A DNA stretch of 64,000 nt from assembly GCA_000002435.2 (NCBI GenBank), contig CM018791.1; one strand, written 5' to 3'. This document shows, one piece after another, positions 42,313-62,913 of the stretch (position 1 is the stretch's first letter; every line of letters starts with the position of its first letter). The notes beneath the pieces are model-generated. The model was not told where the DNA came from, did no database searches, and saw only the letters and a program-made list of their open reading frames with translations. The stretch is from Giardia intestinalis. Its lineage: Eukaryota. The translations under genes were made by a program, and so were the position numbers.

Positions 42313-43218
42313 ATGTCCCTCACTGTATCCGACCTCACCACGGAGCTGAAGAAGATTATAGATAGCAAAAACGAGTCCGCTCTTGTCCAGTTGACTTCGC
42401 AGTATGCGTCGAAGCACCGAGATAAGGTTGTAATTAACTACAAGTCCATCTATGGGATGTACCCTGCCGATGCAATCAAGAAAGCTCTAAAGTCAGGGCC
42501 TGCTGAAACGCTTCTGATGTATGCGTGGACAGATGCACAGGAGGTGCGTGCACGCCTACTCAACCAGGCCCTCAGTGGCAAGAACAACAAGTCTGCACTG
42601 ATAGACGTCGTCCTCTTTTGCGGCCCAGAAGACTGGTACGAGATGGGAGCACACTACACGCGCATATTTCAGAAAGTGGCCAACGACACCCTGCTCAGTG
42701 ATATCGGCAGCTCTGAGCCGTGGTCGCAACTCATCAAGGGGTGGATCAAACACGACAGATACGAGCGCAAGGCTATTAGTGAGGATGCCGCGGCGCTCAT
42801 GGGCTACTTGGAATCTGGCAACCCCGATGGCCTGATCGATCTCCTGTGCAACACCACAGAGGGAGAGTGGAAAAAGATAAATAAGGTGTTCACAGAGAAG
42901 TACGGCGTCGAGGTGGAGACCCTTATTGCGTCCAACTACGTGAAGACAGACATGGAGGCCCTGCTTACCGCCCACTTCTACCTGCTACAGCCCGGCTATG
43001 CCGCTGCCTACCTATGCTCCCTCGCCAACTCTGGCAAAAAGGGCGATAGTGACCGGATGGTTCGCATCACCTCTCTTATGTTCGACAAGGCATTAAAGTG
43101 TAAGTTTGCGTATGAAAAGTACGGCAAGCTCGGCTCAGACTTTAAGCGCCTCTACGACGCCCGTCTCGGGCGAGCTCTTTGTGCACTTTGGCGTGTTGAC
43201 ACCGAAGGCGCAAACTAA
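42313..43218 (+). CDS. Alpha-giardin family paralog (301 aa)
   Basis: Annexin-like four-repeat protein with the family C-terminus (...[36 protein letters not shown]). ATG start preceded by AT-rich DNA. Confidence 0.8.
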
Positions 43219-43269
43219 AGCGTGCATTTAACAGGTGTGAATTAATAATCGGCTTTTCACTGTCCGTCA

Positions 43270-44307
43270 ATGCCTGTTCTGACCCCCATAGGCGAGCTGG
43301 CAGAGAGTCTCTACAATGCGCTTAACCTCGTAGATTTTCAGGGAGCCGTAGCACTGGGATCAAGGTATCCGGCAGACCAAAGGGACAAGGTCCTTCCGCT
43401 GTTCATCACGAGGTATGGCGAGCTGCCCTCTGATATGATAGATAGGCTTTTTAAGCCACCGCAGAGAACAATCCTTGCTTATCTGTGGTCTCAGAAGCAC
43501 GAGGTGCGGGCGGCAATCCTTCTAAATGCAATCCGCACTTCGGATTATTCTACCATGATAGATCTGATTTTTCTTTCGTCGCACTCTGACTGGGAGTCTA
43601 TCCGCACACACTACACCAAAATGTGCGGTAGACAACTTGATGCCGATATCATCGGCAGCGTCAAGCCGAGTAAAAAGGAGGCTGCCCCAATATGGCCAGC
43701 TCTTGCCGAGGCCTGGCTACGTGGGACGCGTTCTGAGCGATACAATCCAGCAAACGAATCAGTACAGCTGGTGAATGCCATCAAACGGAAGGATTTCTCT
43801 GCCATAATATGGCTGATTGCCAATACGGTGTCCAGCGAGTGGGAAAAGATCGTTGCCATTACAGAGGAGGCCCTTGGGAGTACCCTTGAGGAGTTCTTTC
43901 TATGCAATCTTTCGTACGCAGATTGTGCGGCTTTCAGCATGGGTACAGGCGCTTTGATTAATCCCGGCCTTGGGGCAGCATTCGCCATATCCCGGGCCTG
44001 CTTTACGAATTACGAAGGAAAAGGGAAAGACACCCCCAAGGTGGAAAGGTCGGCCTCCAGACAGATGAAGGGATCAAAAAAGTTGAAAACTGGTACAATA
44101 AAGTTCGAGGAGACCCGCTCTTCCAAGAAGGGTGCAGAGTACAAGGGAGATGTGTCCCGACTAATCCGTGTATCGTCTCTCTTCTTCGACTCTTGTAATA
44201 AATGTAAGTTCTTCTATCGCAAGTACGGATCACTAGCAGCAGATCTGCGCTCTGGATTCGCGCCACCTTTATGCGAGGCCTTCATGCGGCTCTGGGATGT
44301 GGATTAG
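43270..44307 (+). CDS. Alpha-giardin family paralog (345 aa) with a lysine-rich insertion of ~42 aa in the last repeat
   Basis: Same fold as the gene 51 bp upstream. The extra segment DTPKVERSASRQMKGSKKLKTGTIKFEETRSSKKGAEYKGDV lies between ...NYEGKGK and SRLIRVSSLFFDSCNKCKFFYRKYG. Confidence 0.75.
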   Translation: MPVLTPIGELAESLYNALNLVDFQGAVALGSRYPADQRDKVLPLFITRYGELPSDMIDRLFKPPQRTILAYLWSQKHEVRAAILLNAIRTSDYSTMIDLIFLSSHSDWESIRTHYTKMCGRQLDADIIGSVKPSKKEAAPIWPALAEAWLRGTRSERYNPANESVQLVNAIKRKDFSAIIWLIANTVSSEWEKIVAITEEALGSTLEEFFLCNLSYADCAAFSMGTGALINPGLGAAFAISRACFTNYEGKGKDTPKVERSASRQMKGSKKLKTGTIKFEETRSSKKGAEYKGDVSRLIRVSSLFFDSCNKCKFFYRKYGSLAADLRSGFAPPLCEAFMRLWDVD

Positions 44308-44353: not shown

Positions 44354-47300
44354 ATGCCCGCTCCGGTCTACTCTCACCAGCTAGACCGTGCACAGCCAGC
44401 GCAAAATGGAACACACTATCATCCATATGCAAAAGATGATAACATTCGCATTGAAGATCTCCAACAGCCGTCTGTTCAACTTCAGGGCAGAGATAACTAT
44501 GCAAATTTGCAGTCCATGAATGATGATCTAATGGCTTGCATATCAAACTCAGAATACACTCTAAGCAGTATTAGGCGTGACATGCAGAATCAAGCAAGGG
44601 CTTTGGGTACTAAGGCCAGCGTAAATCCAGAACTCAACGGTACTTCAAGTCCACAACAGCTAGGCCTTTCTAGGGGAGCGTCTCGCGGCGTCTCAGCAAC
44701 AACACCATCTAGACGCTACCATGACCAGGCCGACCCTCGTCCCATAGTTAGAGAGCGGCCCATGTCAGCTGACTCTGTGCGGTCTAACCTGGGCATCGCA
44801 ACCACAGAGAGCAGTGATCTCGAGGATCTGTTCATGCTTACCCCTCGATCATATGGTGTACTGGCCTCACAGCAGCCGGATTTTGCGTCATCACAGCACA
44901 TTCAGCAACGCGGGCATCGAGTTGCCAACAACAAGGATCTGTCACAGTACTATGAGGAGATAGACGCCGTAACAGCATTCAACGAGGGAATCATGCGTGA
45001 GAAGGCAGTTACAATAGATGCGTTAGAAAGGAACCTCAAGACTCTGAAGGTGGAACTAAACATAAAGGACAGGGAGATGGCTGCTGCAAGAGAACGGATA
45101 GCAGAGCTTGTTAAGGAGGTTACAGAGCGTGACAGCGAGATAAAAGGCCTCAAACATAAATTAGAAAATGTTAAACACAACGCAGAGCGGTTTATTCTGG
45201 CACGCGATGAGGAGATCGCACGTTTGGCTGAGGAGCTGGAGCAGATGGATGAGCACTATCAGCAGAAGATGAAATTGAAAGACTCTAAGCTCCACGCACA
45301 GCACGAAGAGCTAGTTCTTTTAACTGCTAAGGATGATGAAATAGCAGGACTTAGAAGCAAGCTATCGGTCCTTACAGAGCAGCTAGAGCACACAGAAAAC
45401 ACGTTTAAGGCAATAGTCAAGAGCAAAGATGAGCAGATAGAGACGCTGAAGGCCGATGTTCATGCTAAGCGTGACTATAGCCTTGAGCTCCAGCGCATCC
45501 ACGAAAGTCTATCTCAAGTTCGCAAGGACTGTGAGGAGCAGTTGCATCAGAAAGATGCCGAACTTTCCAAGCAGCGGGAGCAAGTGGAGACTGCTGAGAA
45601 GGAAAGGAGTTTGCTAGAAAATGAAGTTACTTCACTAAAGGCCATTGTAGAAAAGCAGGAGGATCTGGTTATCAAGCTCAAGGGGCAATTGGAGCGCAGT
45701 AATCCAGACGTTGAGCGACTGCAGCAGGAGCTCGATACTCTTCGAATAGAGTCACAGAAGGCTATTTCGGCCAAGGTCATAGAAGCTGAAGAGTTGAAGA
45801 GCAAGATTCACACATTAACGACTGAAATGCTCATGCTACCGACGCAGGAAGATATCCTTGAGGCACGAAACGAGGTTTCCAAGGTCACTGCATCTATGGC
45901 TGCCATGATTAAGACAAAAGATGCAGAGATCCTCAGTCTGAGGAGAAAGCTTGAAGACTATGTTGAACTATCGGAAGTTCAGCGACTGAAGGGAGAGCTT
46001 ACTCTTTCTAAGGCAGCGCTGGCAGATACCATTGTACAGAAGACGGCAGAAATCAGAGACTTGAAAGAGGAGATGGCAATTCTTCAAATCGATGAACATG
46101 CATCTGGAGCTCCTTCTGATGGTGGCAGCTTTGATGACAAGTTAAAGGACTTGGAGTCTAGTCAGAATGCGCTCGAAGTATCACTAGGCACGCAAGTTGA
46201 ACTAGGAGCGCTAAAGCGAATTTATAAGGAGGCGATGCTCGCCAGGGACCACCAGATTAAAACTCTTTCCCAGAGGATCAATGACGCAGACGCAGAGCTT
46301 GCCACTTATCGTGAGCGCATTGCTCATCTTGAAAGCACCTCGAAGGAAGCGCCCCATATGCAAGAACGTCCTGCTACAGATTCTGCTTCACCAGCCATCC
46401 ACGACCTGAGAAGCGAACTACAAAGCGTTAAGGACGCCATGGCTGCTGCAATGGTCCGTAATATGCGAGAAGTGGCTACCCTAGAACACCAAATAAACCA
46501 ACTGAAAGGTGAGAATGAGTCACTAAGGATAAAGAGGGACGATACCGTGGAGACTGTATCAATAGGCATCTGTTGTGAGCCTGAGGAGCAGAACGGTCGC
46601 GTGTCCTTTGAAGCGAGATATGCAAAATGTAGTCAGGAAAATGAGCGCCTCTCCAATGAGCTTCAGCTTATTGCACAGGAGCTGGCTAAGACACGGACGG
46701 CGTATTCAGACGTCATGAAGCAACTCAGCGGTCTGAACACAGAGCTGCTAATCACAAGAAACCAGGCTAGCGACGCGCTCAACACTCAGGCCCTTCTGGA
46801 GTCTACTCTGCAGGAGTATGAAAGGGAGGTAAGGACGCTGCGCGGTAGTCTTGAGAGCTCACTCCAGCAAAACAGAGAAGCCGATAGTGTCAACACTAAG
46901 TTGCAGGAGAGCCTCTCAGAGTCCCAGCTCTACGATCTTCAGCAAAAACTAGAGAAGTCACAGGCAGATTTAGAGCGACTGCGGGACGACTATAGCACCA
47001 TGCAAGCAACTAAGGATATGGTCATTCACAAGATCTCATCAGAGGTTATCCATCAACGCGAAATGGTTGACTTAGCCGGAGAAGACATGAACAGAAGGCT
47101 AAAGGAGGCCGAGGAAACAGTAGAAAGGCTCAATAACGAGCTTCTGACACAAAAAGAGGAGTTTGTGACGGTCGTGACAGATCTAGAACAGCAAGTGGAG
47201 AAGCTAAGCGCAGAATTACAAGGATCTCGTGAGTCTAATGAAGCCCTGATTGCACGGATGATGCGTGACATTACAGGCCTAGAAAAGGAGCGTAGCGATT

Positions 47301-49567
47301 TGGAGTCACAGCTGGAGACGGCGAAAGCCACATCCACGACTATTATAAAGGGCCTAGAAGATCAGGTGGCACAGTATGAGCAGAGGATTACAGACTCTCA
47401 ACAGGCTACCATGACCTCACAGAGCTCTGATAGACAACTTATCGAGGCCCTCACTGCTGAGCTATTCACAAACAAAGAGAAGGCCAATAAGACCATAAGT
47501 GATCTTACGGACAAGCTGAATGAGTTGCAAGAGAGGCTGAACGAGGAGAAAGAGGCAAGTGTGATCACTGTAACGCGCCTAACCAGCCAAAATAGCAATC
47601 TCATGTCTGCGACATCTAATCTTACCAAAGAATTGGAAATAACAAAAGAGTCTCTCCGCACAGTTACAGAAGAGTTGACCGGACAGATGTCAAAGATACA
47701 GCTTGATGCCAAGGAGCGAGAGCAGCTGCTTCAAAGCAAGCTTGACGAGGTTACAGCTGAAGCCGAAGCAGCTGCTATGCGCCTTCACGAGCAAGTGACT
47801 CAAAAGGACAGCGAGATAAGACAGCTTACCGATGCGCTAGCTGAGTCTGCTCTACATTTGGAGAAATTAGACACAGAGAGCAAGCAAACGATATCACAAC
47901 TAGTCAGCGAGCTGGCGGAGGCACGGGAAACCATCCAGTTCATTGAGCAAAAAAACCAGCGGGATATGTCCGAAATCAGAAACAGCATTGCTACCTTCAA
48001 GGAGACAACTATAGAGTCTCAAAGGCAACACGCTTTAGATCTAGAGCATAAGGACGCAACGATCGCGCAGTTATCCAATGAACTAGAAAGCATCAAGCAA
48101 GCCATGGAATCTGCTAATTCAGCGCATCAAGCAGTGCTTGAAAAGGTAATGAAAGAGTCTGGCGAGTTAGCTCTTCAAAACAGCAAGTTGAAGACTGAAA
48201 TCCGAGAGCTACATGAACAGTTTGCCAAGACTAATGAAGAGGCTCAGCTGGCCTTTCGTGATCAAATGGAAGGAGCTGATGTGAGAATAGGAGAGCTTCG
48301 GGCACAGGTGGAAGCACTTCAAAAGGATCTGGAGAAGATGACGGTTTCGCGAGACGTCCTCTTAGATAAGCTTTCAGCAACGCATACGAAGAACGAGACG
48401 GATTCGGTAAAGCAAGGAGTTCCTGACTACGATGCCCTATTGAGCATGAGCCAAAGTATTCTCAGCAAAGACGAAGAGATCACGACCCTACGCTCACAAG
48501 TAGAGCTCATGAATAGTAAGCTTATAGCCGAAGAGGAAAATAACAAAAGGGTTGTTGACCACCTGCAAGGAGCAATAGAAGTCATGAACACTCAATACGA
48601 GGAGCTCAGAAGCATGAAGGACTCTGTTATAGAACGGTTGACCCGCCAGGTGAGGAGCACCAGCTCACGAATGCCATCCAGACCAGATTCTGCTGCATCC
48701 TCGAGGCGGGGGTCCTCTGTTGTCAACGAAGCAGATCACAATAAGAAAATTCACGCTTTAACAAAGGAATTGAAGGAGGCCAAGGAGATCTTTATGTACA
48801 CTGTTAGTATGAAAAATGATGAGATAGAACGCCTGAAGGAACAGCTAAAAGAAAAGGAGGAATTCATAATGAGCTTGTCTGTGGGCAGTGTGCTTGCAGA
48901 AAGCTCAAGAAGGCCAACCGAGGAGCTTCTAGAGATCAAGCGTGGGATAAAAGAAAGCGCTTTTCACGCAGAGGATATTTCATGGGAACTTGAGGATTTG
49001 CAGCGGCAAAACTTAGAATTACGCGCCGAGATAGCAGCGCTTACAGAGAAGCAGGCCCTTGTTCCCGAAGCGTCAACACCACGAGGAATCACCGATATAA
49101 CTGGGTCCGCTCAGTCTGCTATGTGTAGCGCCTCCATGGTTGACTCGCTTGCAGCGCTTCACGCGGACCTGAAAGCAAAGGATGAAACAATCCTCAGTCT
49201 ACAAGGTAAGCTCGCGATGGCGCAAGAGGAGCGAGAGGCGAAGCTTACCCAATTGTCGAGAGAACTGGAGCAAACAAAAAGAGCTTTGAGGGACAAGGTT
49301 GATGAGATTGTTAACCTATTAGCTATCATAGACCGTGTGAAAACAGAGTATGAGAATTACCGGGCAAGTACCGCCGTTGAGCTTTCCGGGCTCCGAACTG
49401 CGTTAGAAAAGTATCGAGGAAGTAAAGAAATAGATGCTTCTGATGTACGGATAGCTGAGCTGGAGGCAGCACTGGAAGCAGCTAAAGAGCAACTTAGCGA
49501 GGTTCTAAAGACTAAAAATGAAGAAATCGAACAACTAAGCATTCGGCTCGCAGCTAGAAGTATTTAG
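44354..49567 (+). CDS. Very large coiled-coil protein (1737 aa), probably cytoskeletal/axoneme-associated
   Basis: ATG after the AT-rich ttaaaattttgg. About 1,500 residues of uninterrupted E/K/L/Q-rich heptad sequence. The minus-strand serine-rich ORFs inside it are antisense artefacts. Confidence 0.7.
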   Translation: MPAPVYSHQLDRAQPAQNGTHYHPYAKDDNIRIEDLQQPSVQLQGRDNYANLQSMNDDLMACISNSEYTLSSIRRDMQNQARALGTKASVNPELNGTSSPQQLGLSRGASRGVSATTPSRRYHDQADPRPIVRERPMSADSVRSNLGIATTESSDLEDLFMLTPRSYGVLASQQPDFASSQHIQQRGHRVANNKDLSQYYEEIDAVTAFNEGIMREKAVTIDALERNLKTLKVELNIKDREMAAARERIAELVKEVTERDSEIKGLKHKLENVKHNAERFILARDEEIARLAEELEQMDEHYQQKMKLKDSKLHAQHEELVLLTAKDDEIAGLRSKLSVLTEQLEHTENTFKAIVKSKDEQIETLKADVHAKRDYSLELQRIHESLSQVRKDCEEQLHQKDAELSKQREQVETAEKERSLLENEVTSLKAIVEKQEDLVIKLKGQLERSNPDVERLQQELDTLRIESQKAISAKVIEAEELKSKIHTLTTEMLMLPTQEDILEARNEVSKVTASMAAMIKTKDAEILSLRRKLEDYVELSEVQRLKGELTLSKAALADTIVQKTAEIRDLKEEMAILQIDEHASGAPSDGGSFDDKLKDLESSQNALEVSLGTQVELGALKRIYKEAMLARDHQIKTLSQRINDADAELATYRERIAHLESTSKEAPHMQERPATDSASPAIHDLRSELQSVKDAMAAAMVRNMREVATLEHQINQLKGENESLRIKRDDTVETVSIGICCEPEEQNGRVSFEARYAKCSQENERLSNELQLIAQELAKTRTAYSDVMKQLSGLNTELLITRNQASDALNTQALLESTLQEYEREVRTLRGSLESSLQQNREADSVNTKLQESLSESQLYDLQQKLEKSQADLERLRDDYSTMQATKDMVIHKISSEVIHQREMVDLAGEDMNRRLKEAEETVERLNNELLTQKEEFVTVVTDLEQQVEKLSAELQGSRESNEALIARMMRDITGLEKERSDLESQLETAKATSTTIIKGLEDQVAQYEQRITDSQQATMTSQSSDRQLIEALTAELFTNKEKANKTISDLTDKLNELQERLNEEKEASVITVTRLTSQNSNLMSATSNLTKELEITKESLRTVTEELTGQMSKIQLDAKEREQLLQSKLDEVTAEAEAAAMRLHEQVTQKDSEIRQLTDALAESALHLEKLDTESKQTISQLVSELAEARETIQFIEQKNQRDMSEIRNSIATFKETTIESQRQHALDLEHKDATIAQLSNELESIKQAMESANSAHQAVLEKVMKESGELALQNSKLKTEIRELHEQFAKTNEEAQLAFRDQMEGADVRIGELRAQVEALQKDLEKMTVSRDVLLDKLSATHTKNETDSVKQGVPDYDALLSMSQSILSKDEEITTLRSQVELMNSKLIAEEENNKRVVDHLQGAIEVMNTQYEELRSMKDSVIERLTRQVRSTSSRMPSRPDSAASSRRGSSVVNEADHNKKIHALTKELKEAKEIFMYTVSMKNDEIERLKEQLKEKEEFIMSLSVGSVLAESSRRPTEELLEIKRGIKESAFHAEDISWELEDLQRQNLELRAEIAALTEKQALVPEASTPRGITDITGSAQSAMCSASMVDSLAALHADLKAKDETILSLQGKLAMAQEEREAKLTQLSRELEQTKRALRDKVDEIVNLLAIIDRVKTEYENYRASTAVELSGLRTALEKYRGSKEIDASDVRIAELEAALEAAKEQLSEVLKTKNEEIEQLSIRLAARSI

Positions 49568-49572
49568 ACCAC

Positions 49573-50535
49573 TTAAGATATTCCTTCAACCTTATGAGAG
49601 ATGAATCCAGACTTGCAGCATGGACAGACTGCACGATCGGTAACTGATTCATAGACATCTAAGCAGTTACTATGGAATAAGGCACTACAACAAGAAACAG
49701 TTGAGACTGTGCAAGAGTCTTTCTCGGAGTCTGATGCTAGACTGATGAACGGTCCCTTGTATTCAAAGCTTTCAAAGCAGATGGGACATGCCATACTTTG
49801 ACGTTGACGTGTCTTCTCAATAACAGAGATCCAGTTGACTGCACGTGTGGCCATGAATGCTTCGAAGAGATCGTTAGTCTCATCTATTTCCTTTTGCAAG
49901 CGCCCTAACTCGCTGTCTAGCTTAACTCTTTGAGTAAGCAAGTAAGAATTCATATTATCTGCAGCGTGCTCTAGCTCTGCAACCAGAGCCCCTGTACTGC
50001 GCTTGCGAAGGGCTCTGTAACAGCGGCGTCCAAAATATCCCCGTATTGCTGCCTGGATGTCTCTGGCTGCTGAGATGCACATGTATGATTTCAAAAAGGA
50101 AGATTCGCGCATATTAGCAGGTGTCATACAAACTGGGCAACACCACCGAGCCTTCGACTGGGTCATCCAATTTACGAAGCACTCCTTATGAACTGCATGG
50201 CTGCAAGAAGAACATAGCATTTCAGAAGAGCCGAAGCGCTGAAGACATATAGGACAATGCCGTTCTTCCCGGACGATCCACTTTAATTCAGCTCTCCTCC
50301 ACTCTTCATCGGTCAATGGGGGAGGAAGAGTAGACGGCACAAGCTTCATGCGCTCTGCCCGCGTGCTTGGAGCTTGGCTATCGGTTGTAAACCTTGCTTT
50401 TTGGACAACACTGAAGCCTGGCTTCAGACCCATCTTGTGGAGATTATGAGACATCAGCGCTGATGATGCAGTGGCGACAGACCCTGACAAGCTTTTCAGG
50501 AGTTTCTGGGTAGAGAAGGATAAAGTAGGCCGCAT
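49573..50535 (-). CDS. RNF32-like protein: two RING-H2 fingers plus an IQ motif
   Basis: First finger: CPICLQRF...CSHAVHKECFVNWMT...CPVC. Second finger: CPICFESF...CCSALFHSNCLDVYE...CPCC. IQ motif: IQAAIRGYFGRRCYRALRK. ATG at 50533-50535 with AT-rich upstream DNA. Confidence 0.6.
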   Translation of the reverse strand: MRPTLSFSTQKLLKSLSGSVATASSALMSHNLHKMGLKPGFSVVQKARFTTDSQAPSTRAERMKLVPSTLPPPLTDEEWRRAELKWIVREERHCPICLQRFGSSEMLCSSCSHAVHKECFVNWMTQSKARWCCPVCMTPANMRESSFLKSYMCISAARDIQAAIRGYFGRRCYRALRKRSTGALVAELEHAADNMNSYLLTQRVKLDSELGRLQKEIDETNDLFEAFMATRAVNWISVIEKTRQRQSMACPICFESFEYKGPFISLASDSEKDSCTVSTVSCCSALFHSNCLDVYESVTDRAVCPCCKSGFISHKVEGIS

Positions 50536-51540
50536 GAAATGCCCGATTTGTTAATATTTACTATTACGCAAAATATACAGGAACAAAGATGGTCCCCTTG
50601 AAGAGGCCAGTGAAGAAGATAGTTCCCTCCCTGCCCACAGAGTCTACGTGACGCTACGGGCTCTTATTGCTGAAGTACTTGCTGACTAATTAAACTAAGC
50701 TCTTTGATAGAAAATAGATCATCGCACTACATAGGAGAATTGCATGCACAATAGCCTTACCGGCAGATAGGTAAAAAGCGAATGAAAAATTGTATTGTAC
50801 TATGAGCCAAACTTTATCTTATAAAGATTGAGGAATCCCAGGTAATATATAACGGTTTGAATGCCAGCAAGATTCGCGACCGCAGAGCACACTGCAATCT
50901 GGCGACTGGTTTGGCCATGCCGCTTCTTTATCCGTTAGAAACTCGGCTGGGAGCGACAAAGAGCACGTCGGGAGAACCCGGTGGGAGGGGACAGGCGGGG
51001 CTTTCTGCGCCACGGGGGGAACCACCGCAGGAGGACGTGCAGGCACGCAAGCCAGGCCACAGTAGACACGCGGGCGCCCCTGTAGACCGGGCCGGCAGCA
51101 GGCGTCCGTAGAATCCGCGCCAGAGCCAGCTGCTCAAAAAACTGGGCAGCCCCTGGTCGTGTGCAAGCCTTGCAGAGCACTGCGGCCCCCGACACTCGGC
51201 GACCCCTCTCAGAGCGGAAGACCCCGCGGGCCGCAGGCAGCAGCTCGTCGTCGGCGATGCCCCGAACGAGGGGGACGGCCCCAGCCTGCCCGCCTCCGCA
51301 GAGCTCCGGGTATCTGTAGACAAACCGGGGCTGCGCAGGGTGCGGCTCTCCCTGGCGGCCGAGGGCAGGGGTCCCCGGCAATACCAAAAAACTCCGATCA
51401 ATACATCAGCCCCGGCGCCGCCGTGTGCAAAGCAGTCTGTTCTGTGTGGCGGCCCAAGCCAGCTCGTACTGCGGCGATGGCCCGGGTGAGGGCGCCCTGC
51501 TCGCCCGACGGACCGGGGCAGGCAGGCAACAAACACCCGC

Positions 51541-51623
51541 TAAAGCTTTTATGCAAGGCCTGTACATATTTAATTTCACATTATTCGTTGGTCTGTTTTT
51601 AGTTTTATCGCTGCTTCTATCGG
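51541..51623 (+). promoter_or_regulatory. AT-rich island (ttatgcaaggcctgtacatatttaatttcacattattcgttggtctgtttttagttttatcg) abutting an ATG inside the GC-rich arm, likely a Giardia promoter. Its mirror copy sits at 61462-61544 (-)
   Basis: This roughly 80-bp A/T-rich segment is the only one within more than 1.5 kb of GC-rich DNA. It ends right at the ATG at 51624. Confidence 0.4.
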
Positions 51624-52433
51624 ATGGGCTCTGGGGCAATGACGGCGGAGACGCGCGCCTCCGTTCTGCTCGAGCTCGCGAAGCAGGTCGTCGCTGCCCG
51701 GCGGCTGGGAGAGACGGCCGAGAGCCTCGCGCGGCGGCCGCTGCTCCTCCACCGGCACGTGCTCCGGACGGCCATCGACTGGAAGAAGATCGCCCGCGCC
51801 CTGTCCGAGGACCGGAGCAGGATCTACCACTGGTACCGCGAGACGCACTCGCGGAGCATCCTCAACGTGAAGATGACCGGCGAGGACCGCAGGGCCATCA
51901 AGGCGATGATCATCGCCGGGGTCAGGGACCGGAGCGTCCTGGGCCCGGACTTCTACCGCAGGGTCCACGAGCGCTTCGGGGCGAAGTATCCGCGCCAGGA
52001 GCTGCGGATGACGTACAACAACGCGCTCCGCACCCAGGACGTCCGCGCCGCCCTGGAGGAGCACGGGGTGGTGCTGCCGCGCCGCACATACGGCCCGAGG
52101 GCGGCCAGGCAGGAGGAGGAGGCATCTCCTGTGGCGGCCACTCCCCCGCCCCCCTGCGTTTTTGGTTGCGCCGCGCCTCCGCTGGTGCCGCCCGTCGGGG
52201 GGCCGGTCTTTGTGGTCCCGGGCGCGGTCTCTGCGCTTCTGCCCCCGCACGCGCCGGGGTGCCTCGTCCTCGCCCTCCCACCCGGGGTCGTTCCTGGGCC
52301 CGGCGTCCTCCCGCTCCAGACGGGCCAGGGCCTCCTTGGGCCGCCCGTTGCCTTCGCGTGCGTGCCATGCTTCCCCCCTGCGGGCTACGGGGGCGTCCCT
52401 GGGTGCGCTGATGCGAGCCCCAGTAAGGGTTGA
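51624..52433 (+). CDS. Arm-encoded putative DNA-binding protein (269 aa): an N-terminal ~170-aa HTH/Myb-like domain plus a Pro-rich tail
   Basis: ATG start directly downstream of the AT island. The N-terminal sequence is non-repetitive (LELAKQVVAARRLGETAESLARRPLLLHRHVLRTAIDWKKIARALSEDRSRIYHWYRETHSRSILNV...) with a W-x17-W spacing reminiscent of Myb/HTH domains. The C-terminus is P/G/V-rich. Coding status is uncertain because the surrounding GC-rich DNA is open in all six frames. Confidence 0.35.
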   Translation: MGSGAMTAETRASVLLELAKQVVAARRLGETAESLARRPLLLHRHVLRTAIDWKKIARALSEDRSRIYHWYRETHSRSILNVKMTGEDRRAIKAMIIAGVRDRSVLGPDFYRRVHERFGAKYPRQELRMTYNNALRTQDVRAALEEHGVVLPRRTYGPRAARQEEEASPVAATPPPPCVFGCAAPPLVPPVGGPVFVVPGAVSALLPPHAPGCLVLALPPGVVPGPGVLPLQTGQGLLGPPVAFACVPCFPPAGYGGVPGCADASPSKG

Positions 52434-55314
52434 GGACTGGAGAACCCGGCTTGCTTGACGATTGTCGAAGAGTGGCCGGCAGGAACAGCCGATGGTTGGA
52501 TCCCTGATCAGTGACGAGACAGTTATATCTAGAGCGTGTAGCATGCTCAACCACGGCACAGCGCAGGGCCCACCAGACACAGGCTACGACGGTCTGGATG
52601 TCGCGCAACCCGCATTCTGCGCATTGCTGAAGAGACCACACACAGCAGACGAAGGCAGGGCTCTCCCATGTGCCCAGACGACTCGAACACCGCGGTCTGG
52701 GCCAACGATCTACCAGACAGGCCCGTCCGGTAACAGGCGACTGAATGCTCTCTGGGCCGTGAGCTAAAGCTGATGTGCAGCTGGCCGGCCACGACATTCA
52801 CCCTGGCTGGCCCTCTGTCTTCACGCGCCGACACGCCAAGGAGCTGTAGGGAAGTCGTGTGCTGTCTTGGCAGGTATATTATTACCTCCATGTATGCACC
52901 CTGGATGCGGCCACCATAGCACAGCTGCATCTCTGATCGTCCTGTACACGCCTCCTGGCACGAGTAGGTGCGCAGGAGGGGGTGCACTGCCCACCGCCGA
53001 GAAATGGATGAGCTCCCCTGCTCAGGAGCCGACGACCGCCAGCCATGCCCAACGAGGTCCCCTGCAAGGAGGCCTGCTGAGCCAGCTCTTCCAGCGAGCC
53101 GTGTATCTGGAAGAGCTCCGCGTTGAATGGCTCCTTGATTAAGGAAGCCGGAGTCCAGCGCGATGTGACGCCTGTCCGTCTAAGGCTGAGACTTCGGTCT
53201 GGTGCTTGCTGCTGAGCGAGCATTAAATGAGGCTGGCCAAAGAAGCGGCTCAGGGCTTTCATAGCTCTGTGTCTTCTTGTTCTGTTCGACTGAAACACCT
53301 GATCTCAGTGCTGACTGTTGGGTCTCCTCCTGTGGACGTGGTCCGGAAGTCTCACAGAGGACCTGTTTTTTTGTAATTTCTTCTAAGACGAAGGTAAGTC
53401 GTTCTATAGGATTAGGACTACATCTGTAGAAGCACAGCCCCGGTTAAAGCAGTAACATACAATTCGCAGATGCGTAGAATGCTTGCAGGAGAAAGCAGTA
53501 AGGAAAGATATCTCGATCATGACATAGACGTGAGACAGCACCACAGGCTGCCCAAGCAACCGGTCTGGATACGAGGTGCGGCATGATTACCCTTATCTAT
53601 CCTTTGCCAGGTGAGGGAATTCGACATAGAGCCTAGTCACCCTAACGGTCAGAACCAAAGGCAAAAGCTAGACCTGTGGTGTGTTGGCAAGTGATGGACA
53701 CAAGGGCATCCCTGGATGGACTGTTGCATGAGAGGGCGAAGGCCCATAGAGATGGGTTGCTCTCAGCACCTGCAGTGGGCAGCTTGCTCCGCGGCCAACA
53801 AGTTGTTGGGTCAGAAACAAGCACGGACGATGCCTGTCAGATGGGTCCGAGCCAGTCACCCGATGCCCCCTACGGGCCTCGTCCAACCGACACTCTTGAT
53901 TCTTGTCGAATAGCTCAGACAGACTGGGGAGAGGAAGGACTACCAGTCACCAGAGCTTGCTGCAGTGGGAGAGCCGGGCTTGGCTCGTCCCCGTCTTCAC
54001 ACAAGAGCGGGGAAGTGGGTTTACTTGCGGGACCCTTGGGCCGCGGCTGCAGGGGGGCTCAGTACTAGAGCGCTAGAAATAGCTGGCTGTCGAAGTAAAT
54101 CGTCGCTTTCCGGGGATGACATCTTCCTCGACCAGGGCAGCAGAAGAGACCCTCAATGCATCTGCCGGTGCTGGGGTGCGTCCTACCCGTCAGCGGGGCT
54201 TCATGGCTCCACTGGAAAGCCCAATCGTCCGCTTCTTGCTGTGCTCAGAGGACAGAGAACTAGGCAGGCGTAGTCCCATCCGCCCACCGGAGGGCTATGA
54301 GCGCCCCCGTCGTCCCATTGAGCAGCACCAGGCGCAGAAGAGGTCTGCCGGAAATGCGCCAGATGCAGTCAACGCTTTTCTGGGTGTAGTGTTAACAGAA
54401 TCACACGCTACGACGCGTCCCAGACAGGCTCCACCTGGCAGCGGCGCCCCAGAGGCGGGCCCCGAGGGACAAAACATTTCTGGCCCTGCCCCTGCTCCAA
54501 TGCGAGCGGCCCGCGGACAGAGCCGAGGACGGGGGCCAGTGCTCGGCCTCCTGCTGGTGCGGTGGCGCCGGGAGACCACCGGACCATCGACTCGGCAGCG
54601 GCAACCGGTGGAACGCCCTGGGCTGCTGCTGTGCCCATGCGCCTGGAGCGCGCCGCAGCAGCCCGGGATGGGTCCGCAGACAGGCGTGCCGCCCCAGCCG
54701 TCCCGGGGGCCGGCTCCTCGTGGCGGGCGCTCCTGCTCCCTTTGACTTTTCAAATGGAGAACGCAGTTATGGATCCTAGTTCTGCTGCAGAAGGTGCCTT
54801 ATGAGACGCAGCACAGCCACACCAAGCGGTATCGGGGCTGAACACTCCTTGGGACGGGCTCCTGGCGCATCTGAGAGACGCTCGTTGCTGTGCACTGCCT
54901 CTCGGGCCTTGGATGCACGTTGTGCAGAGCTGCAGGAGTCGCCCTTGCAGTTGTCAGTGGGCCGTTGATGGAGCCATTGAAAGCTCTGGACCGCTACTGG
55001 GCAGTACTGTCCCAGTGCACGTGTGGCAGCTTTGGCTCGCACTGGATGGTCCGTACAGATTGCAACGGAGCCACGAGGTGCATTAGTATGACATACACAT
55101 TGAGACAGTTGCAGTTCTATTCGGTCCAATCCACCTCCTTCTGGCCCTGTGCCGAGATTGCAGATTGCAAGTAGTGTTCGCGATAGACCCGGTGAGTGTT
55201 GATTCCATCAGCGCCTGTGGTCAACGTGTGCCAGAAGGATCAATCAACTGCATCAATCGACGCGGATTGACTGATGTACCGCGAGTATGTTCCTACCAAT
55301 CTATCAATCGGGCA

Positions 55315-57534
55315 ATGTTTGGCAGTTTTGTTCTCGCGGGGGTACTCGTCCAGATTGCATGGGCAGGAAAAGCAACAGAGCGCGCGCAAGAAGCTCAATG
55401 CGCAGATAACACTAATTGCGCAGCAGAAGCATGCAACGTTCTGATCGGTGGTAAATTGTATTGCTCTCGATGTAACACAGGATTTGTTCCTATCAATGGA
55501 CAATGTGCAGACAAAGAAGGTGCAACAGATAAGTGCAAAGATGGCTCCGGAGGCGATACAGCTGATCAGACCTGTGGACAGTGCGCCGAGCAGACTTTCA
55601 TGTACAAGGGCGGCTGTTACGAAGCAGCCCAGCAGCCCGGACAGACCATGTGTCAGGCGGCAGATGCTGGAGTATGCACACAAGCCGCGCAAGGATACTT
55701 CGTGCCGCCGGGCGCAGACGCCTCTCACCAATCGGTTATACCATGTGGAGACGAAGAGGAAATAACGGTTAAAAACGATAAAAAGTACAAGGGCGTGCTG
55801 CACTGCACTCGGTGTAACGCTCCCACAGAAGCAGCAGATGCTAACGCCAAGGCCGCCACATGCACTGCGTGCCAGGCAGATAGGTATCTGAAGACAGCCA
55901 AGGACCAAGCCACCTCCTGCGTGACAGAGCAAGAGTGCACCGGCACCGAAGGGTTCTTCGCGAAAAATGGCGGCACCAAAACCTGTGAGGCGTGCGCTGA
56001 AACATGCAAGACCTGTAAGACCGAGGCTGCGAAGTGCACCTCTTGCAAGGACGACAAGCCGTACCTGAAGAAGGATAATGGCAGCGACACTGGCACGTGC
56101 GTCACCGAAGCTGAGTGCAAGACTGGAAACACCCACTACCCCGACGACACTGAGCCGAAGACGTGCAAGACGTGCGCCGAGGGGACCTCCGACGGGTGTG
56201 CGACGTGCGAGAAGGGCGCCGATGGAGCAGTCGCCTGCAAGACGTGCGGAAACCAGAAGAAGGTCCAGCCAAACAAGAAGGGGTGCGTTGAGAACTGCCC
56301 CTCGAACTCCAACGATAAGAAGACCCCTGGCACCTGTGAGTGCGTTGAGGGCTACGTTCCCGAGGAGGCCGGCACCGGGTGCACGAAGAAGCCCGACCCC
56401 CCTGCGGCGCCGTGCAACACCCCCGGCTGCAAGACGTGCAGTGAGCCGAAGACAAGCAAGGAGGTGTGCACAGAGTGCGAAGACCCCAAGGCCCTCACGC
56501 CCACGGGCCAGTGCATCTACGGTTGTGAGCACCTGGAAGGCTACTACGAGGGCACCAGCGAGGGGGGCAAGAAGGCCTGCAAGAAGTGCGAGGTCGAGAA
56601 CTGCCTCCTGTGCAACGAAAACGGACAGTGCGAGACCTGCAAGGACGGATACTACAAGAAAGAAACCGCCTGTGCCAAGTGCGATACCTCGTGCAAGACG
56701 TGCGCGAACGGGGAGCCCAACGGGTGCACGAGCTGCGAGGCTAAGAAGGCCCTCAGCTACGAAGGAGAGGGCAACACGGGGACGTGCAAATCAGAATGCA
56801 AACCGGGTACTAACAACTGCGAGAAGTGCGAGCTGACAGTCGATGGCACGGCCTACTGCTCCAAGTGCAAGGACGCCAACCAGTTCCCGCAGAACGGAGT
56901 CTGCTCGGCGGCGGCCGGAAAGGCTATTACGTGCACTACCAAAGGGACTGGTGTCTGTGACAAATGCGCCAACGGGCTTCTTCGGATGAACGGAGGCTGC
57001 TATGAGACGACCAAGTTCCCTGGAAAGAGCGTCTGTGAGGAAGCAGCATCGGCTGGGGATACCTGCCAAGTAGAGGCTCCAGGCTATCATCTTAATAACA
57101 ATGACCTTGTGACTTGCTCGGCCGGATGTAAGACGTGCACTAGTAACACCGTGTGTACTGAATGCATGGATGGGTATGCAAAGACTGATAATAAGTGCAC
57201 AAAGTGTGCCACTGGCTGTGCTACTTGTGCAGGATCCGCCTCAAATTGCGACACTTGCAGCACTGGGTACTACAAGTATAAGAACGCCTGTGTGTCTTGC
57301 ACGGAAAGCAACAGTGATAAGACTATCACCGGCGTCGCCAACTGCGCCAACTGCGCTCCTCCACTCAACAATAAAGGGTCTGTCCTCTGCTACCTCGTGC
57401 AGAGTGGCGAGAACACTAACAAAAGTGGTCTCAGCGCAGGCGCCATCGCGGGCATCGCTGTTGCTGTCATCATTGTTGTCGGCGGCCTCGTCGGTTTCCT
57501 TTGCTGGTGGTTTATGTGCAGAGGCAAGGCGTAG
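55315..57534 (+). CDS. Variant-specific surface protein (VSP), complete
   Basis: Signal peptide MFGSFVLAGVLVQIAWA. More than 40 CXXC motifs. GGCY motifs (YKGGCYEA, MNGGCYETT). A C-terminal transmembrane helix followed by the invariant CRGKA tail (...FLCWWFMCRGKA*). The track start 55165 is TTG, and the first ATG in frame before the signal peptide is 55315. Confidence 0.9.
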   Translation: MFGSFVLAGVLVQIAWAGKATERAQEAQCADNTNCAAEACNVLIGGKLYCSRCNTGFVPINGQCADKEGATDKCKDGSGGDTADQTCGQCAEQTFMYKGGCYEAAQQPGQTMCQAADAGVCTQAAQGYFVPPGADASHQSVIPCGDEEEITVKNDKKYKGVLHCTRCNAPTEAADANAKAATCTACQADRYLKTAKDQATSCVTEQECTGTEGFFAKNGGTKTCEACAETCKTCKTEAAKCTSCKDDKPYLKKDNGSDTGTCVTEAECKTGNTHYPDDTEPKTCKTCAEGTSDGCATCEKGADGAVACKTCGNQKKVQPNKKGCVENCPSNSNDKKTPGTCECVEGYVPEEAGTGCTKKPDPPAAPCNTPGCKTCSEPKTSKEVCTECEDPKALTPTGQCIYGCEHLEGYYEGTSEGGKKACKKCEVENCLLCNENGQCETCKDGYYKKETACAKCDTSCKTCANGEPNGCTSCEAKKALSYEGEGNTGTCKSECKPGTNNCEKCELTVDGTAYCSKCKDANQFPQNGVCSAAAGKAITCTTKGTGVCDKCANGLLRMNGGCYETTKFPGKSVCEEAASAGDTCQVEAPGYHLNNNDLVTCSAGCKTCTSNTVCTECMDGYAKTDNKCTKCATGCATCAGSASNCDTCSTGYYKYKNACVSCTESNSDKTITGVANCANCAPPLNNKGSVLCYLVQSGENTNKSGLSAGAIAGIAVAVIIVVGGLVGFLCWWFMCRGKA

Positions 57535-57542
57535 ACTTAGAT

Positions 57543-57549
57543 AGTAAAT
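57543..57549 (+). terminator. Giardia poly(A) signal AGTAAAT downstream of the VSP stop
   Basis: tag acttag at AGTAAAT g sits 9-15 nt after the TAG at 57532-57534 and matches AGTRAAY. Confidence 0.45.
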
Positions 57550-58324
57550 GCGTCGATTCGCCTTCTTAAGGCGTGGAACTCTCGTTACGTCCACACTGCA
57601 AATGTGCTTGACGATTTCTAACATCTGGATTTTGTATAGCAGTCTGGAGTCGTGTGTGTGACTTTACTTTTATTCCACACTTCCAATAGTTTGCCACTGG
57701 ACTTCGCCTGCAAATGCAGCCTAGGAGTGCATGAATAAATAAACTTACATGTCTTCTTGGTAGAGCAAAGCAGACCCCTACTTGAGGACTTGGACCCGCT
57801 ACTCTATGCTTGTATCTGACGTAGTCGCACTTAGCCAAGGTGCACACCCTACTATCACTCGATAGCTCACCCTCTCGTTGTCTTAAAGGAGCAGCTCTTA
57901 GACTGCTGCCCAGTTGACTTTACCAAGTACTTGCTTATTTAAGCGAACTGTGAACGAACTTTCTGAATACCAGGTGAACCCTTATATCTAAAGACTACGA
58001 CACGTTCCTCATGTTCCAGTTCTACTGTAGTGACCTGTGAGGATGGTTGTATCCAATCTCAGTCCTCCAGCATATAGAGTATACACTAGTAACCATTTGT
58101 ACTTCATAACCTGTCTTTGTCTTCGAACGTGACTGAGCGACCGGATTATTCGCATGGGTTTAGCCCATATCTAAATAAGATCGAGAAGAGGCCACAAGAA
58201 TACTTTCTATAGCAAAGCTGGAGCTGCTAGCTACATATGCAACAGTTAGCCCCGCACCAGCAATCGATGCAACGGGGATGTGTGCCCACCCGAGCAGTAC
58301 ACAGCTGGCTACCCGTAATTATGC

Positions 58325-61300
58325 TCTCCATTTGAAAAGTCAAAGGGAGCAGGAGCGCCCGCCACGAGGAGCCGGCCCCCGGGACGGCTGGGGCGGCACG
58401 CCTGTCTGCGGACCCATCCCGGGCTGCTGCGGCGCGCTCCAGGCGCATGGGCACAGCAGCAGCCCAGGGCGTTCCACCGGTTGCCGCTGCCGAGTCGATG
58501 GTCCGGTGGTCTCCCGGCGCCACCGCACCAGCAGGAGGCCGAGCACTGGCCCCCGTCCTCGGCTCTGTCCGCGGGCCGCTCGCATTGGAGCAGGGGCAGG
58601 GCCAGAAATGTTTTGTCCCTCGGGGCCCGCCTCTGGGGCGCCGCTGCCAGGTGGAGCCTGTCTGGGACGCGTCGTAGCGTGTGATTCTGTTAACACTACA
58701 CCCAGAAAAGCGTTGACTGCATCTGGCGCATTTCCGGCAGACCTCTTCTGCGCCTGGTGCTGCTCAATGGGACGACGGGGGCGCTCATAGCCCTCCGGTG
58801 GGCGGATGGGACTACGCCTGCCTAGTTCTCTGTCCTCTGAGCACAGCAAGAAGCGGACGATTGGGCTTTCCAGTGGAGCCATGAAGCCCCGCTGACGGGT
58901 AGGACGCACCCCAGCACCGGCAGATGCATTGAGGGTCTCTTCTGCTGCCCTGGTCGAGGAAGATGTCATCCCCGGAAAGCGACGATTTACTTCGACAGCC
59001 AGCTATTTCTAGCGCTCTAGTACTGAGCCCCCCTGCAGCCGCGGCCCAAGGGTCCCGCAAGTAAACCCACTTCCCCGCTCTTGTGTGAAGACGGGGACGA
59101 GCCAAGCCCGGCTCTCCCACTGCAGCAAGCTCTGGTGACTGGTAGTCCTTCCTCTCCCCAGTCTGTCTGAGCTATTCGACAAGAATCAAGAGTGTCGGTT
59201 GGACGAGGCCCGTAGGGGGCATCGGGTGACTGGCTCGGACCCATCTGACAGGCATCGTCCGTGCTTGTTTCTGACCCAACAACTTGTTGGCCGCGGAGCA
59301 AGCTGCCCACTGCAGGTGCTGAGAGCAACCCATCTCTATGGGCCTTCGCCCTCTCATGCAACAGTCCATCCAGGGATGCCCTTGTGTCCATCACTTGCCA
59401 ACACACCACAGATCTAGCTTTTGCCTTTGGTTCTGACCGTTAGGGTGACTAGGCTCTATGTCGAATTCCCTCACCTGGCAAAGGATAGATAAGGGTAATC
59501 ATGCCGCACCTCGTATCCAGACCGGTTGCTTGGGCAGCCTGTGGTGCTGTCTCACGTCTATGTCATGATCGAGATATCTTTCCTTACTGCTTTCTCCTGC
59601 AAGCATTCTACGCATCTGCGAATTGTATGTTACTGCTTTAACCGGGGCTGTGCTTCTACAGATGTAGTCCTAATCCTATAGAACGACTTACCTTCGTCTT
59701 AGAAGAAATTACAAAAAAACAGGTCCTCTGTGAGACTTCCGGACCACGTCCACAGGAGGAGACCCAACAGTCAGCACTGAGATCAGGTGTTTCAGTCGAA
59801 CAGAACAAGAAGACACAGAGCTATGAAAGCCCTGAGCCGCTTCTTTGGCCAGCCTCATTTAATGCTCGCTCAGCAGCAAGCACCAGACCGAAGTCTCAGC
59901 CTTAGACGGACAGGCGTCACATCGCGCTGGACTCCGGCTTCCTTAATCAAGGAGCCATTCAACGCGGAGCTCTTCCAGATACACGGCTCGCTGGAAGAGC
60001 TGGCTCAGCAGGCCTCCTTGCAGGGGACCTCGTTGGGCATGGCTGGCGGTCGTCGGCTCCTGAGCAGGGGAGCTCATCCATTTCTCGGCGGTGGGCAGTG
60101 CACCCCCTCCTGCGCACCTACTCGTGCCAGGAGGCGTGTACAGGACGATCAGAGATGCAGCTGTGCTATGGTGGCCGCATCCAGGGTGCATACATGGAGG
60201 TAATAATATACCTGCCAAGACAGCACACGACTTCCCTACAGCTCCTTGGCGTGTCGGCGCGTGAAGACAGAGGGCCAGCCAGGGTGAATGTCGTGGCCGG
60301 CCAGCTGCACATCAGCTTTAGCTCACGGCCCAGAGAGCATTCAGTCGCCTGTTACCGGACGGGCCTGTCTGGTAGATCGTTGGCCCAGACCGCGGTGTTC
60401 GAGTCGTCTGGGCACATGGGAGAGCCCTGCCTTCGTCTGCTGTGTGTGGTCTCTTCAGCAATGCGCAGAATGCGGGTTGCGCGACATCCAGACCGTCGTA
60501 GCCTGTGTCTGGTGGGCCCTGCGCTGTGCCGTGGTTGAGCATGCTACACGCTCTAGATATAACTGTCTCGTCACTGATCAGGGATCCAACCATCGGCTGT
60601 TCCTGCCGGCCACTCTTCGACAATCGTCAAGCAAGCCGGGTTCTCCAGTCCTCAACCCTTACTGGGGCTCGCATCAGCGCACCCAGGGACGCCCCCGTAG
60701 CCCGCAGGGGGGAAGCATGGCACGCACGCGAAGGCAACGGGCGGCCCAAGGAGGCCCTGGCCCGTCTGGAGCGGGAGGACGCCGGGCCCAGGAACGACCC
60801 CGGGTGGGAGGGCGAGGACGAGGCACCCCGGCGCGTGCGGGGGCAGAAGCGCAGAGACCGCGCCCGGGACCACAAAGACCGGCCCCCCGACGGGCGGCAC
60901 CAGCGGAGGCGCGGCGCAACCAAAAACGCAGGGGGGCGGGGGAGTGGCCGCCACAGGAGATGCCTCCTCCTCCTGCCTGGCCGCCCTCGGGCCGTATGTG
61001 CGGCGCGGCAGCACCACCCCGTGCTCCTCCAGGGCGGCGCGGACGTCCTGGGTGCGGAGCGCGTTGTTGTACGTCATCCGCAGCTCCTGGCGCGGATACT
61101 TCGCCCCGAAGCGCTCGTGGACCCTGCGGTAGAAGTCCGGGCCCAGGACGCTCCGGTCCCTGACCCCGGCGATGATCATCGCCTTGATGGCCCTGCGGTC
61201 CTCGCCGGTCATCTTCACGTTGAGGATGCTCCGCGAGTGCGTCTCGCGGTACCAGTGGTAGATCCTGCTCCGGTCCTCGGACAGGGCGCGGGCGATCTTC

Positions 61301-62224
61301 TTCCAGTCGATGGCCGTCCGGAGCACGTGCCGGTGGAGGAGCAGCGGCCGCCGCGCGAGGCTCTCGGCCGTCTCTCCCAGCCGCCGGGCAGCGACGACCT
61401 GCTTCGCGAGCTCGAGCAGAACGGAGGCGCGCGTCTCCGCCGTCATTGCCCCAGAGCCCATCCGATAGAAGCAGCGATAAAACTAAAAACAGACCAACGA
61501 ATAATGTGAAATTAAATATGTACAGGCCTTGCATAAAAGCTTTAGCGGGTGTTTGTTGCCTGCCTGCCCCGGTCCGTCGGGCGAGCAGGGCGCCCTCACC
61601 CGGGCCATCGCCGCAGTACGAGCTGGCTTGGGCCGCCACACAGAACAGACTGCTTTGCACACGGCGGCGCCGGGGCTGATGTATTGATCGGAGTTTTTTG
61701 GTATTGCCGGGGACCCCTGCCCTCGGCCGCCAGGGAGAGCCGCACCCTGCGCAGCCCCGGTTTGTCTACAGATACCCGGAGCTCTGCGGAGGCGGGCAGG
61801 CTGGGGCCGTCCCCCTCGTTCGGGGCATCGCCGACGACGAGCTGCTGCCTGCGGCCCGCGGGGTCTTCCGCTCTGAGAGGGGTCGCCGAGTGTCGGGGGC
61901 CGCAGTGCTCTGCAAGGCTTGCACACGACCAGGGGCTGCCCAGTTTTTTGAGCAGCTGGCTCTGGCGCGGATTCTACGGACGCCTGCTGCCGGCCCGGTC
62001 TACAGGGGCGCCCGCGTGTCTACTGTGGCCTGGCTTGCGTGCCTGCACGTCCTCCTGCGGTGGTTCCCCCCGTGGCGCAGAAAGCCCCGCCTGTCCCCTC
62101 CCACCGGGTTCTCCCGACGTGCTCTTTGTCGCTCCCAGCCGAGTTTCTAACGGATAAAGAAGCGGCATGGCCAAACCAGTCGCCAGATTGCAGTGTGCTC
62201 TGCAGCCGGGGATCTTGCTGGCAT
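58325..62224. repeat. Right arm (3,900 bp) of the inverted repeat, the mirror of 50861-54760
   Basis: The coordinate mapping is x maps to 113085 minus x. The only difference I found inside the arms is left 53673 C versus the complement of right 59412 A. A short mismatch patch lies at the outer ends (left 50874-50883). Confidence 0.9.
60652..61461 (-). CDS. Second, identical copy of the arm-encoded putative HTH/Myb-like protein
   Basis: Its translation is identical to that of 51624-52433. The mirrored AT-island lies upstream at 61462-61544. Confidence 0.35.
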   Translation of the reverse strand: MGSGAMTAETRASVLLELAKQVVAARRLGETAESLARRPLLLHRHVLRTAIDWKKIARALSEDRSRIYHWYRETHSRSILNVKMTGEDRRAIKAMIIAGVRDRSVLGPDFYRRVHERFGAKYPRQELRMTYNNALRTQDVRAALEEHGVVLPRRTYGPRAARQEEEASPVAATPPPPCVFGCAAPPLVPPVGGPVFVVPGAVSALLPPHAPGCLVLALPPGVVPGPGVLPLQTGQGLLGPPVAFACVPCFPPAGYGGVPGCADASPSKG

Positions 62225-62913
62225 CTCACGCGACCGGGCTCTGGGTGTGCCTGCTCAACAGTAGCTACCTCATCCACAGAGTGCTGATGCAGATATTATG
62301 CGCTACGTATCAGTGACCACAGGGGCACCGATAGACAGGGTCTCAGCCTCAGTGCACAACGAAGGTTATCAAGCATAGCGAGGCTTACATACTGAGCATG
62401 GGTCCGTGCCCCGCGTGGTCTTCTTAAGAACTAGTGCATGAGTGTTTGTGAGACGATGCTATCCGTATGAGGCGGGCTATCCGTCGTACGCGAAGTGCAG
62501 TACGGCAGAAGTGGGTGATGCAGGAACCAGAGGGGGTGCTTCAGCACATCAGTCGTCGGCCCCTCTGCCTTCTGTCACGCCTGATGGACTCTCCTCTACT
62601 ATCGCAACTCAGTCGTGGTTGTCTGAGGAGAGGACTAGGTATTCAGTAGACAATGGAATCGCGTGGCCTGGACGCGATTTCGTGATGGCCAACACGGGTT
62701 ATCAGGCTGGCTGTGGTCTGGATATGTGGTACAGCTTCCTTCACTCAAGCAGGGGTTAACACCTGCACTAATACAGATCTACAATAAGACATACACCATG
62801 CCCAGTACAGTTGAAAGATAAAACAGAAAGATATTATATTAAACGATAGTTATATTTGCCGTCAATTGTTATTAATAGAGCTAACACCCCTGGTCAAAAA
62901 AACGTTCGCTGTG

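Follow-up and report, generated by a model that had tools for sequence, protein, structure and literature searches.

Inverted gene pairs and Myb-like proteins of Giardia

Giardia WB has 14 pairs of vsp genes that exist as identical inverted copies. Within a pair, the copies lie 2.2-3.8 kb apart, and the sequences diverge abruptly at the ends (Adam et al. 2010, PMC2996952). Here we describe a structure of this kind in a 64,000-nucleotide stretch of Giardia duodenalis DNA (contig CM018791.1 of assembly GCA_000002435.2), referred to as the window. Its source is seen from the central open reading frame (ORF) of the repeat, which is a VSP, and from the close protein matches, all of which are from Giardia. 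An 810-nt ORF is found in identical, inverted copies on the two sides of the VSP gene. The joint explanation that fits best, and that is likely to be right, is that this ORF is a gene of a Myb-like family with DNA-binding products, that the AT-rich island in front of it is its promoter, and that it was copied in an inverted segmental duplication.

As in the known pairs (e.g., vsp1267; PMC2996952), the two inverted ORFs are identical and identity is lost abruptly at the ends of the arms. The spacer of 3.5 kb (3540 nt) is inside the 2.2-3.8 kb range. The differences are that a Myb-like gene is duplicated here while a single vsp lies in the unique spacer, and that the arms are somewhat longer (3.9 kb).

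Another point of comparison is gMyb2, a canonical Myb protein that is recognized by standard models. The family of the window protein, in contrast, is undetected by Pfam, has no detectable sequence relationship to gMyb2 beyond the fold, and nothing ties it to encystation. What it has in common with the encystation-induced gMyb2/Myb1-like protein (PMC9547401) is its origin in Giardia, a Myb-type fold, and presumed binding to promoters.

Coding status of the ORF

The two copies of the gene, their upstream islands, and the two parts of the encoded protein are located as follows.

51624..52433, plus strand: Myb-like gene, left copy (810 nt, 269 aa, stop codon at 52431-52433)
60652..61461, minus strand: Myb-like gene, right copy (identical protein)
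51541..51623, plus strand: AT-rich island, left copy, putative promoter/initiator (83 bp; by composition and conservation)
61462..61544, minus strand: AT-rich island, mirror copy, promoter-like (within the identical part of the arms)
51624..52088, plus strand: basic helical N-terminal domain, residues 1-155 (conserved, periodic, modelled)
52089..52430, plus strand: Pro/Gly/Ala/Val-rich low-complexity tail, residues 156-269 (by composition and AlphaFold confidence)

Judged by its codon usage and conservation, the ORF is a genuine protein-coding gene of G. duodenalis. It exists in two identical copies because it sits inside a 3.9-kb inverted segmental duplication. Read in its other frames, this GC-rich DNA has three further ORFs of 291-334 aa that overlap the gene. 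ORF length alone is therefore uninformative here, and the case for the gene consists of periodicity and conservation. In the N-terminal 155 codons, the GC contents of the first, second, and third codon positions (GC1/2/3) are 0.67/0.47/0.95. The corresponding values are 0.70/0.71/0.63 in the upstream flank and 0.58/0.62/0.62 in the downstream flank, where periodicity of the N-terminal type is absent. The ratio of nonsynonymous to synonymous substitution rates (dN/dS) of the N-terminal domain is 0.36 against assemblage E, 0.51 against assemblage B, and 0.36 against a paralogue; for the gene and for its tail, the values are 0.26-0.59. The sole length difference from another assemblage A isolate (L001) is an 18-nt indel, which keeps the frame. 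The first ATG is the start conserved in the family (consensus MV...M).

The window had earlier been annotated from its letters alone, and this original prediction placed an 810-nt ORF at ATG 51624, with a mirror copy of island and ORF running from 61544 down to 60652. Both coordinates are accurate, and the two proteins of 269 aa are identical. It also regarded the ORF as a real gene, unless its periodicity turned out to be like that of the surrounding DNA. A GC3 of 0.95 in the N-terminal domain against 0.62-0.63 in the flanks, orthologues in assemblages A, E, and B, and the conserved start all bear this out.

Several points weigh against a coding role. The tail shows no GC3 periodicity (GC1/2/3 = 0.82/0.64/0.80), which leaves in-frame indels and a shared C-terminal motif as the grounds for calling it coding. 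The reduction of dN/dS is only moderate, and the GC3 bias compresses dS. Locus-tag full-text searches and the supplements of transcriptome papers give no expression entry for 61066, the annotated counterpart of the gene; of the family, only two paralogues turn up there. The canonical polyadenylation signal AGTRAAY is not found within 120 nt of the stop codon. It is likewise not found at any of the four homologous loci checked, and its absence here is therefore uninformative. The overlapping ORFs, the aperiodic tail, and the missing expression entry would all suit a frame that is no gene and is open by chance, in DNA that is GC-rich and poor in stops. Against such an origin stand the gap between GC3 and GC2 in the N-terminal domain, identities of 20-35% with invariant motifs kept over four diplomonad genera, a confident structure prediction, and the conservation of both start codon and island. 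A chance ORF is exceedingly improbable, and as far as sequence conservation goes it is already refuted.

A protein family of diplomonads

A protein database search, as proposed with the original prediction, returns 19 Giardia homologues with E values from 1e-38 to 1e-171. The closest match is the hypothetical protein GL50803_0061066 (97% identical). The orthologue of assemblage E (GLP15_5233, partial) is 92% identical and that of assemblage B (GSB_153196) 63%, while identities of 40-45% are seen for several paralogues. When 20 Giardia homologues are aligned, 39 columns are invariant, and all of them fall within residues 15-133. The invariant motifs are RIYHWYRETH and YxRxELRMxYNN; the latter reads KYPRQELRMTYNN in the window protein.

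Distant relatives in other diplomonads are found by an exhaustive profile search with hidden Markov models against 1.84 billion cluster representatives (E <= 1e-3). It yields 69 proteins. Every named one is from a diplomonad (Giardia, Hexamita inflata, Trepomonas sp. PC1, or Spironucleus salmonicida), and all are labelled hypothetical. By these searches, the proteins form a multigene family that is confined to diplomonads and keeps one fixed architecture across them. Each G. duodenalis genome has at least five or six of its paralogue groups. The Giardia groups include GL50803_38275 (639 aa), GL50581_3964, GLP15_3061, and GL50581_3044. Two members, P0016 and P0026, are just 34% identical and so belong to separate paralogue groups. 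Transcription of at least two groups is documented in four isolates, together with the mapped 3' untranslated regions: GL50803_38275 at 52-145 fragments per kilobase per million (FPKM) and the GL50803_4188/GL50581_3964 group at 84-287 FPKM (Franzen 2013, Table S1, PMC3610916). There is no Pfam model for the family. Our search found no published characterization, and the locus tags of its members are not mentioned in the searchable literature.

Note that GSB_153196 (L006:3481-4497, assemblage B), annotated as 338 aa, departs from its 287-aa relative P0005 over the last ~45 aligned positions and then has an unrelated extension of ~40 aa. The deviation resembles the effect of a frameshift or sequencing error, as the assembly is a draft and the tail is GC-rich.

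Protein architecture and fold

Two helical units are distinguished within the N-terminal domain.

51729..51869, plus strand: Myb/SANT-like three-helix unit, residues ~36-82 (helices at 39-47, 53-60, and 64-81)
51870..52061, plus strand: second helical unit, residues 83-146 (motifs KMTxEDR and KYPRQELRMTYNN)

The domain is strongly basic, with an isoelectric point (pI) of 11.1, 31 Lys and Arg against 17 Asp and Glu, and a net charge of about +14. From the Giardia alignment, AlphaFold2 models residues 1-165 with nine helices and a predicted local distance difference test score (pLDDT) of 85.3. From residue 155 on, the model is disordered (pLDDT <50). The three-helix unit contains the invariant W53 and W70 and the motif RIYHWYRETH. 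Across the wider family W53 is invariant and W70 nearly so. The helices of this unit form a bundle with the helix-turn-helix (HTH) geometry of Myb/SANT domains. When 41 family members are scanned singly against Pfam, sub-threshold matches are obtained to HTH_23 (in 10), Myb_DNA-bind_8 (in 7), and Myb_DNA-bind_6 (in 4), and the best E values to Myb models are ~0.009-0.017. When PDB is searched with the family profile, a single protein is matched, the R2R3 Myb WER, at a non-significant E of 0.35 and in register over helices 1-2. A second family profile gives a non-significant match to ASCC3 (E = 1).

Other results speak against a Myb/SANT assignment. Pfam gives no match for the window protein, and no Myb/SANT model (Myb_DNA-binding, Myb_DNA-bind_6/8, or SANT) reaches its gathering score. 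With hhalign, residues 39-97 are placed on c-Myb from R1 to the start of R2 at a probability of 2%. Foldseek finds nothing in PDB at E < 1 for the whole 165-residue model, probably because the model consists of several units. The second unit modelled alone gives non-specific matches to helical bundles. The pattern W-x18/19-W-x18/19-W is not present: the W53-W70 gap is 16 residues instead of the canonical 18-19, and the position of the first Trp is not conserved.

From the predicted model we infer one Myb/SANT (homeodomain-like) three-helix unit at residues ~36-82, for which the sequence-level support is weak but consistent. The second unit is possibly a degenerate second Myb-like repeat. The family differs from described Myb/SANT domains (c-Myb R2R3, WER, Cdc5/CEF1, SNAPc4, TRF1, and Reb1) in staying below the Pfam Myb thresholds, in the shorter Trp gap and missing first Trp, in an extra N-terminal helix of ~35 residues, in a second unit not recognizably Myb by structure, and in its restriction to diplomonads. 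The original prediction of an HTH/Myb-like N-terminal domain stands at the level of the fold, while curated sequence models remain below threshold. Its W-x17-W pattern is correct in the two Trp residues and off by one in the spacing.

The tail is Pro/Gly-rich, as had been noticed, with 27 Pro and 17 Gly in residues 156-269. In the Giardia paralogues the tails do not align, except that a brief motif recurs close to the C-terminus, with the consensus AYVP and hydrophobic residues after it. In the window protein it is AFACVPCF (residues ~243-269; window 52350-52430). It may be a short linear interaction motif.

The AT-rich island

The island of 83 bp directly abuts the start codon. Its GC content is 0.337 (51541-51623) and falls to 0.255 in the core (51566-51612), compared with 0.685 upstream (50900-51540) and 0.722 in the ORF. 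It is surrounded by ~2 kb of 68-75% GC, and the only 60-nt segments below 45% GC between 50881 and 53200 are those of the island. An A/T island of ~80 bp ending at ATG 51624 had been part of the original prediction, and it is found as described.

The island is also conserved. It is 92.8% identical to that of assemblage E, while the 100 nt upstream of it are 67.6% identical. The corresponding values for assemblage B are 56% and 37%. Conservation of the island is roughly on par with that of the coding sequence. Giardia promoters are short AT-rich elements abutting the ATG. Being AT-rich, adjacent to the start codon, and conserved between lineages, the island is a putative promoter of the Giardia type and fits this established picture.

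Proposed function

In the mechanism that we propose, the island would act as a short Giardia promoter. The basic HTH domain of the product would bind nucleic acid, most likely DNA, through the invariant helix RIYHWYRETH and the Asn pair of MTYNN, and the disordered Pro/Gly-rich tail would recruit partners. The pI, and the conservation of Arg and Asn in what are putatively the recognition helices, are indirect hints of sequence-specific DNA binding and nuclear localization.

The fold may also be Myb/SANT-like in a protein that is not a sequence-specific, DNA-binding transcription factor. Such a protein would be a SANT-type module for chromatin or protein interaction, or an RNA-binding factor like Cdc5/CEF1. 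We consider this unlikely. Canonical histone-binding SANT domains tend to be acidic, and the strongly basic N-terminal domain favours nucleic-acid binding over a SANT-type role of that sort. In addition, invariant Arg, His, and Asn are located on the putative recognition helices.

Recognizable transcription factors are very few in Giardia, and how VSP choice is controlled is only partly understood. A likely nucleic-acid-binding fold is here assigned to hypothetical proteins of a family that is conserved across diplomonads and has at least two transcribed members. This makes the proteins candidate regulators. The fold assignment and the recognition of the family are new here, while the gene itself was already annotated as hypothetical. 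Since both the fold and the type of repeat are familiar, current understanding is unchanged. A more far-reaching idea is that the 11.4-kb unit works as a functional module and is no accidental duplication. Recombination between the arms would flip the VSP centre, and the Myb-like proteins would bind to the arms or VSP flanks and influence recombination or epigenetic VSP choice. The diplomonad family could also supply some of the transcription or chromatin factors that seem to be missing in Giardia. This is a long shot.

The inverted duplication

The unit consists of two arms and a unique centre of 3540 nt, in the order gene, VSP, and gene, and is 11.4 kb long.

50861..54772, no strand: left arm of the inverted duplication (3912 nt)
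58313..62224, no strand: right arm of the inverted duplication (3912 nt)
55315..57534, plus strand: VSP gene in the unique centre (Pfam VSP, E = 2.6e-153)

Between the arms there are 10 mismatches in 3912 positions, nine of them within ~20 nt of the arm ends and a sole internal one at 53673 (59412 in the right arm). There are only two copies of the arm within the window. The start of the VSP gene was set at the first ATG ahead of the signal peptide (MFGSFVLAG...). The VSP protein ends with CRGKA, and a polyadenylation signal, AGTAAAT, is found 12 nt past the stop codon.

The original prediction also raised the idea that this gene is what remains of a transposase's DNA-binding part, which would make the arms and the VSP a composite structure like a DNA transposon. 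Weak sub-threshold matches to HTH_23, HTH_28, HTH_Tnp_1, and the Tc3 HTH domain would formally allow an ancient domestication, and they lend no support to a present-day mobile element. Pfam finds no catalytic domain in any family member, including those of 522-926 aa, and no match in any other ORF of the arms. The arm ends lack terminal inverted repeats. There is no target-site duplication, as the outer flanks (GGTTTGA and CTCACGC) show no direct repeat. Two paralogue groups that were checked are single-copy with conserved synteny across isolates and independent samples, and the diplomonad-wide family keeps its one architecture. Tc1/mariner elements such as Tc3 have a bipartite HTH; the window family differs from them in having no DDE domain, terminal inverted repeats, or target-site duplication, and in the stable synteny of these two groups. 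Moreover, identical inverted pairs spaced by ~3 kb are a known feature of Giardia that is unrelated to transposons. Both the transposase remnant and the composite transposon are thus largely refuted, and we regard them as very improbable.

We conclude that the structure is an inverted segmental duplication and no mobile element. It would have arisen by the inverted-duplication process behind the known identical inverted vsp pairs, and the copies would stay identical through recent duplication or gene conversion. The locus shows that the inverted-pair architecture known for vsp genes can also duplicate non-vsp genes around a vsp.

Paralogue context and GC bias

The neighbours of the window-type orthologues differ among assemblages: a RING gene in A, a kinesin gene in E, and a VSP and a NEK kinase gene in B. 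This places the lineage in rearrangement-prone DNA. In isolate DH, a degraded partial copy of the arm is found directly after the paralogue DHA2_153000 (L002:11149-13353). There the N-terminal domain is missing and the tail of the gene is open for 82 codons (SPAPCALGCAAPPL...AFAYVPCLPPAGHGG*). The copy continues co-linearly with ~2 kb of sequence from downstream in the arm at ~70% identity (68-75%). Its arrangement suggests either paralogues that were once in tandem or a segmental duplication long ago.

Over the whole gene, the orthologues of assemblages A, E, and B (L001, L006, and L007) have GC3 values of 0.85-0.94, and the paralogue DHA2_153000 has 0.57. The non-coding parts of the arms have a GC content of 60-77%. 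The extreme GC3 of the orthologue lineage would fit GC-biased gene conversion acting over a long time in a repeat that recombines, and the lineage is a possible case study for this process in Giardia.

Other ORFs and neighbouring genes

Apart from the Myb-like gene, no ORF of the arm has a Pfam match above threshold or shows frame-specific conservation. From comparisons between isolates, in which conservation is frame-independent or shifts frame, these ORFs are non-coding. Two candidates were dropped. A divergent minus-strand gene at 50928-51536, called in isolate L001, has a GTG start and no Pfam match, and its conservation against assemblage E switches frame with indels. A 209-aa ORF at 54116-54745 is equally conserved in sense and antisense frames against L001, has no Pfam match, and is missing from the partial copy in isolate DH (L002). 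An Rfam scan of 50000-58500 (E <= 1) matched no RNA family; therefore the GC-rich arm is not like ribosomal DNA.

The flanks of the duplication contain housekeeping genes, with RING-H2 on the left and the exosome gene RRP4 (S1/KH) on the right.

42313-44307, 44354-49567, 49573-50535, and 62866-63702, strand not stated: flanking genes (by Pfam and synteny with L001)

The left flank contains two annexin (alpha-giardin-type) genes, recognized by synteny with L001, an ORF of 1737 aa without a significant Pfam match, and the RING-H2 gene. Within the 64-kb window at least, the repeat is thus surrounded by ordinary genes.

In a contig of ENA ERZ28528424 (assemblage A, L001:11353-14062), which corresponds to window 60031-57322, the VSP centre has the opposite orientation. 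Starting in the left flank, this contig crosses the arm and then enters the centre on the VSP 3' side, at the point where the window continues from 54773 onward. This could be a flip-flop inversion between identical arms or an arbitrary path of the assembler.

At the far left of the window (281-3102) there is a retrotransposon copy with an RVT_1 reverse transcriptase (ORF 690-2141, minus strand). L002:16143-18952, close to the paralogue locus of isolate DH, matches it with 85% identity.
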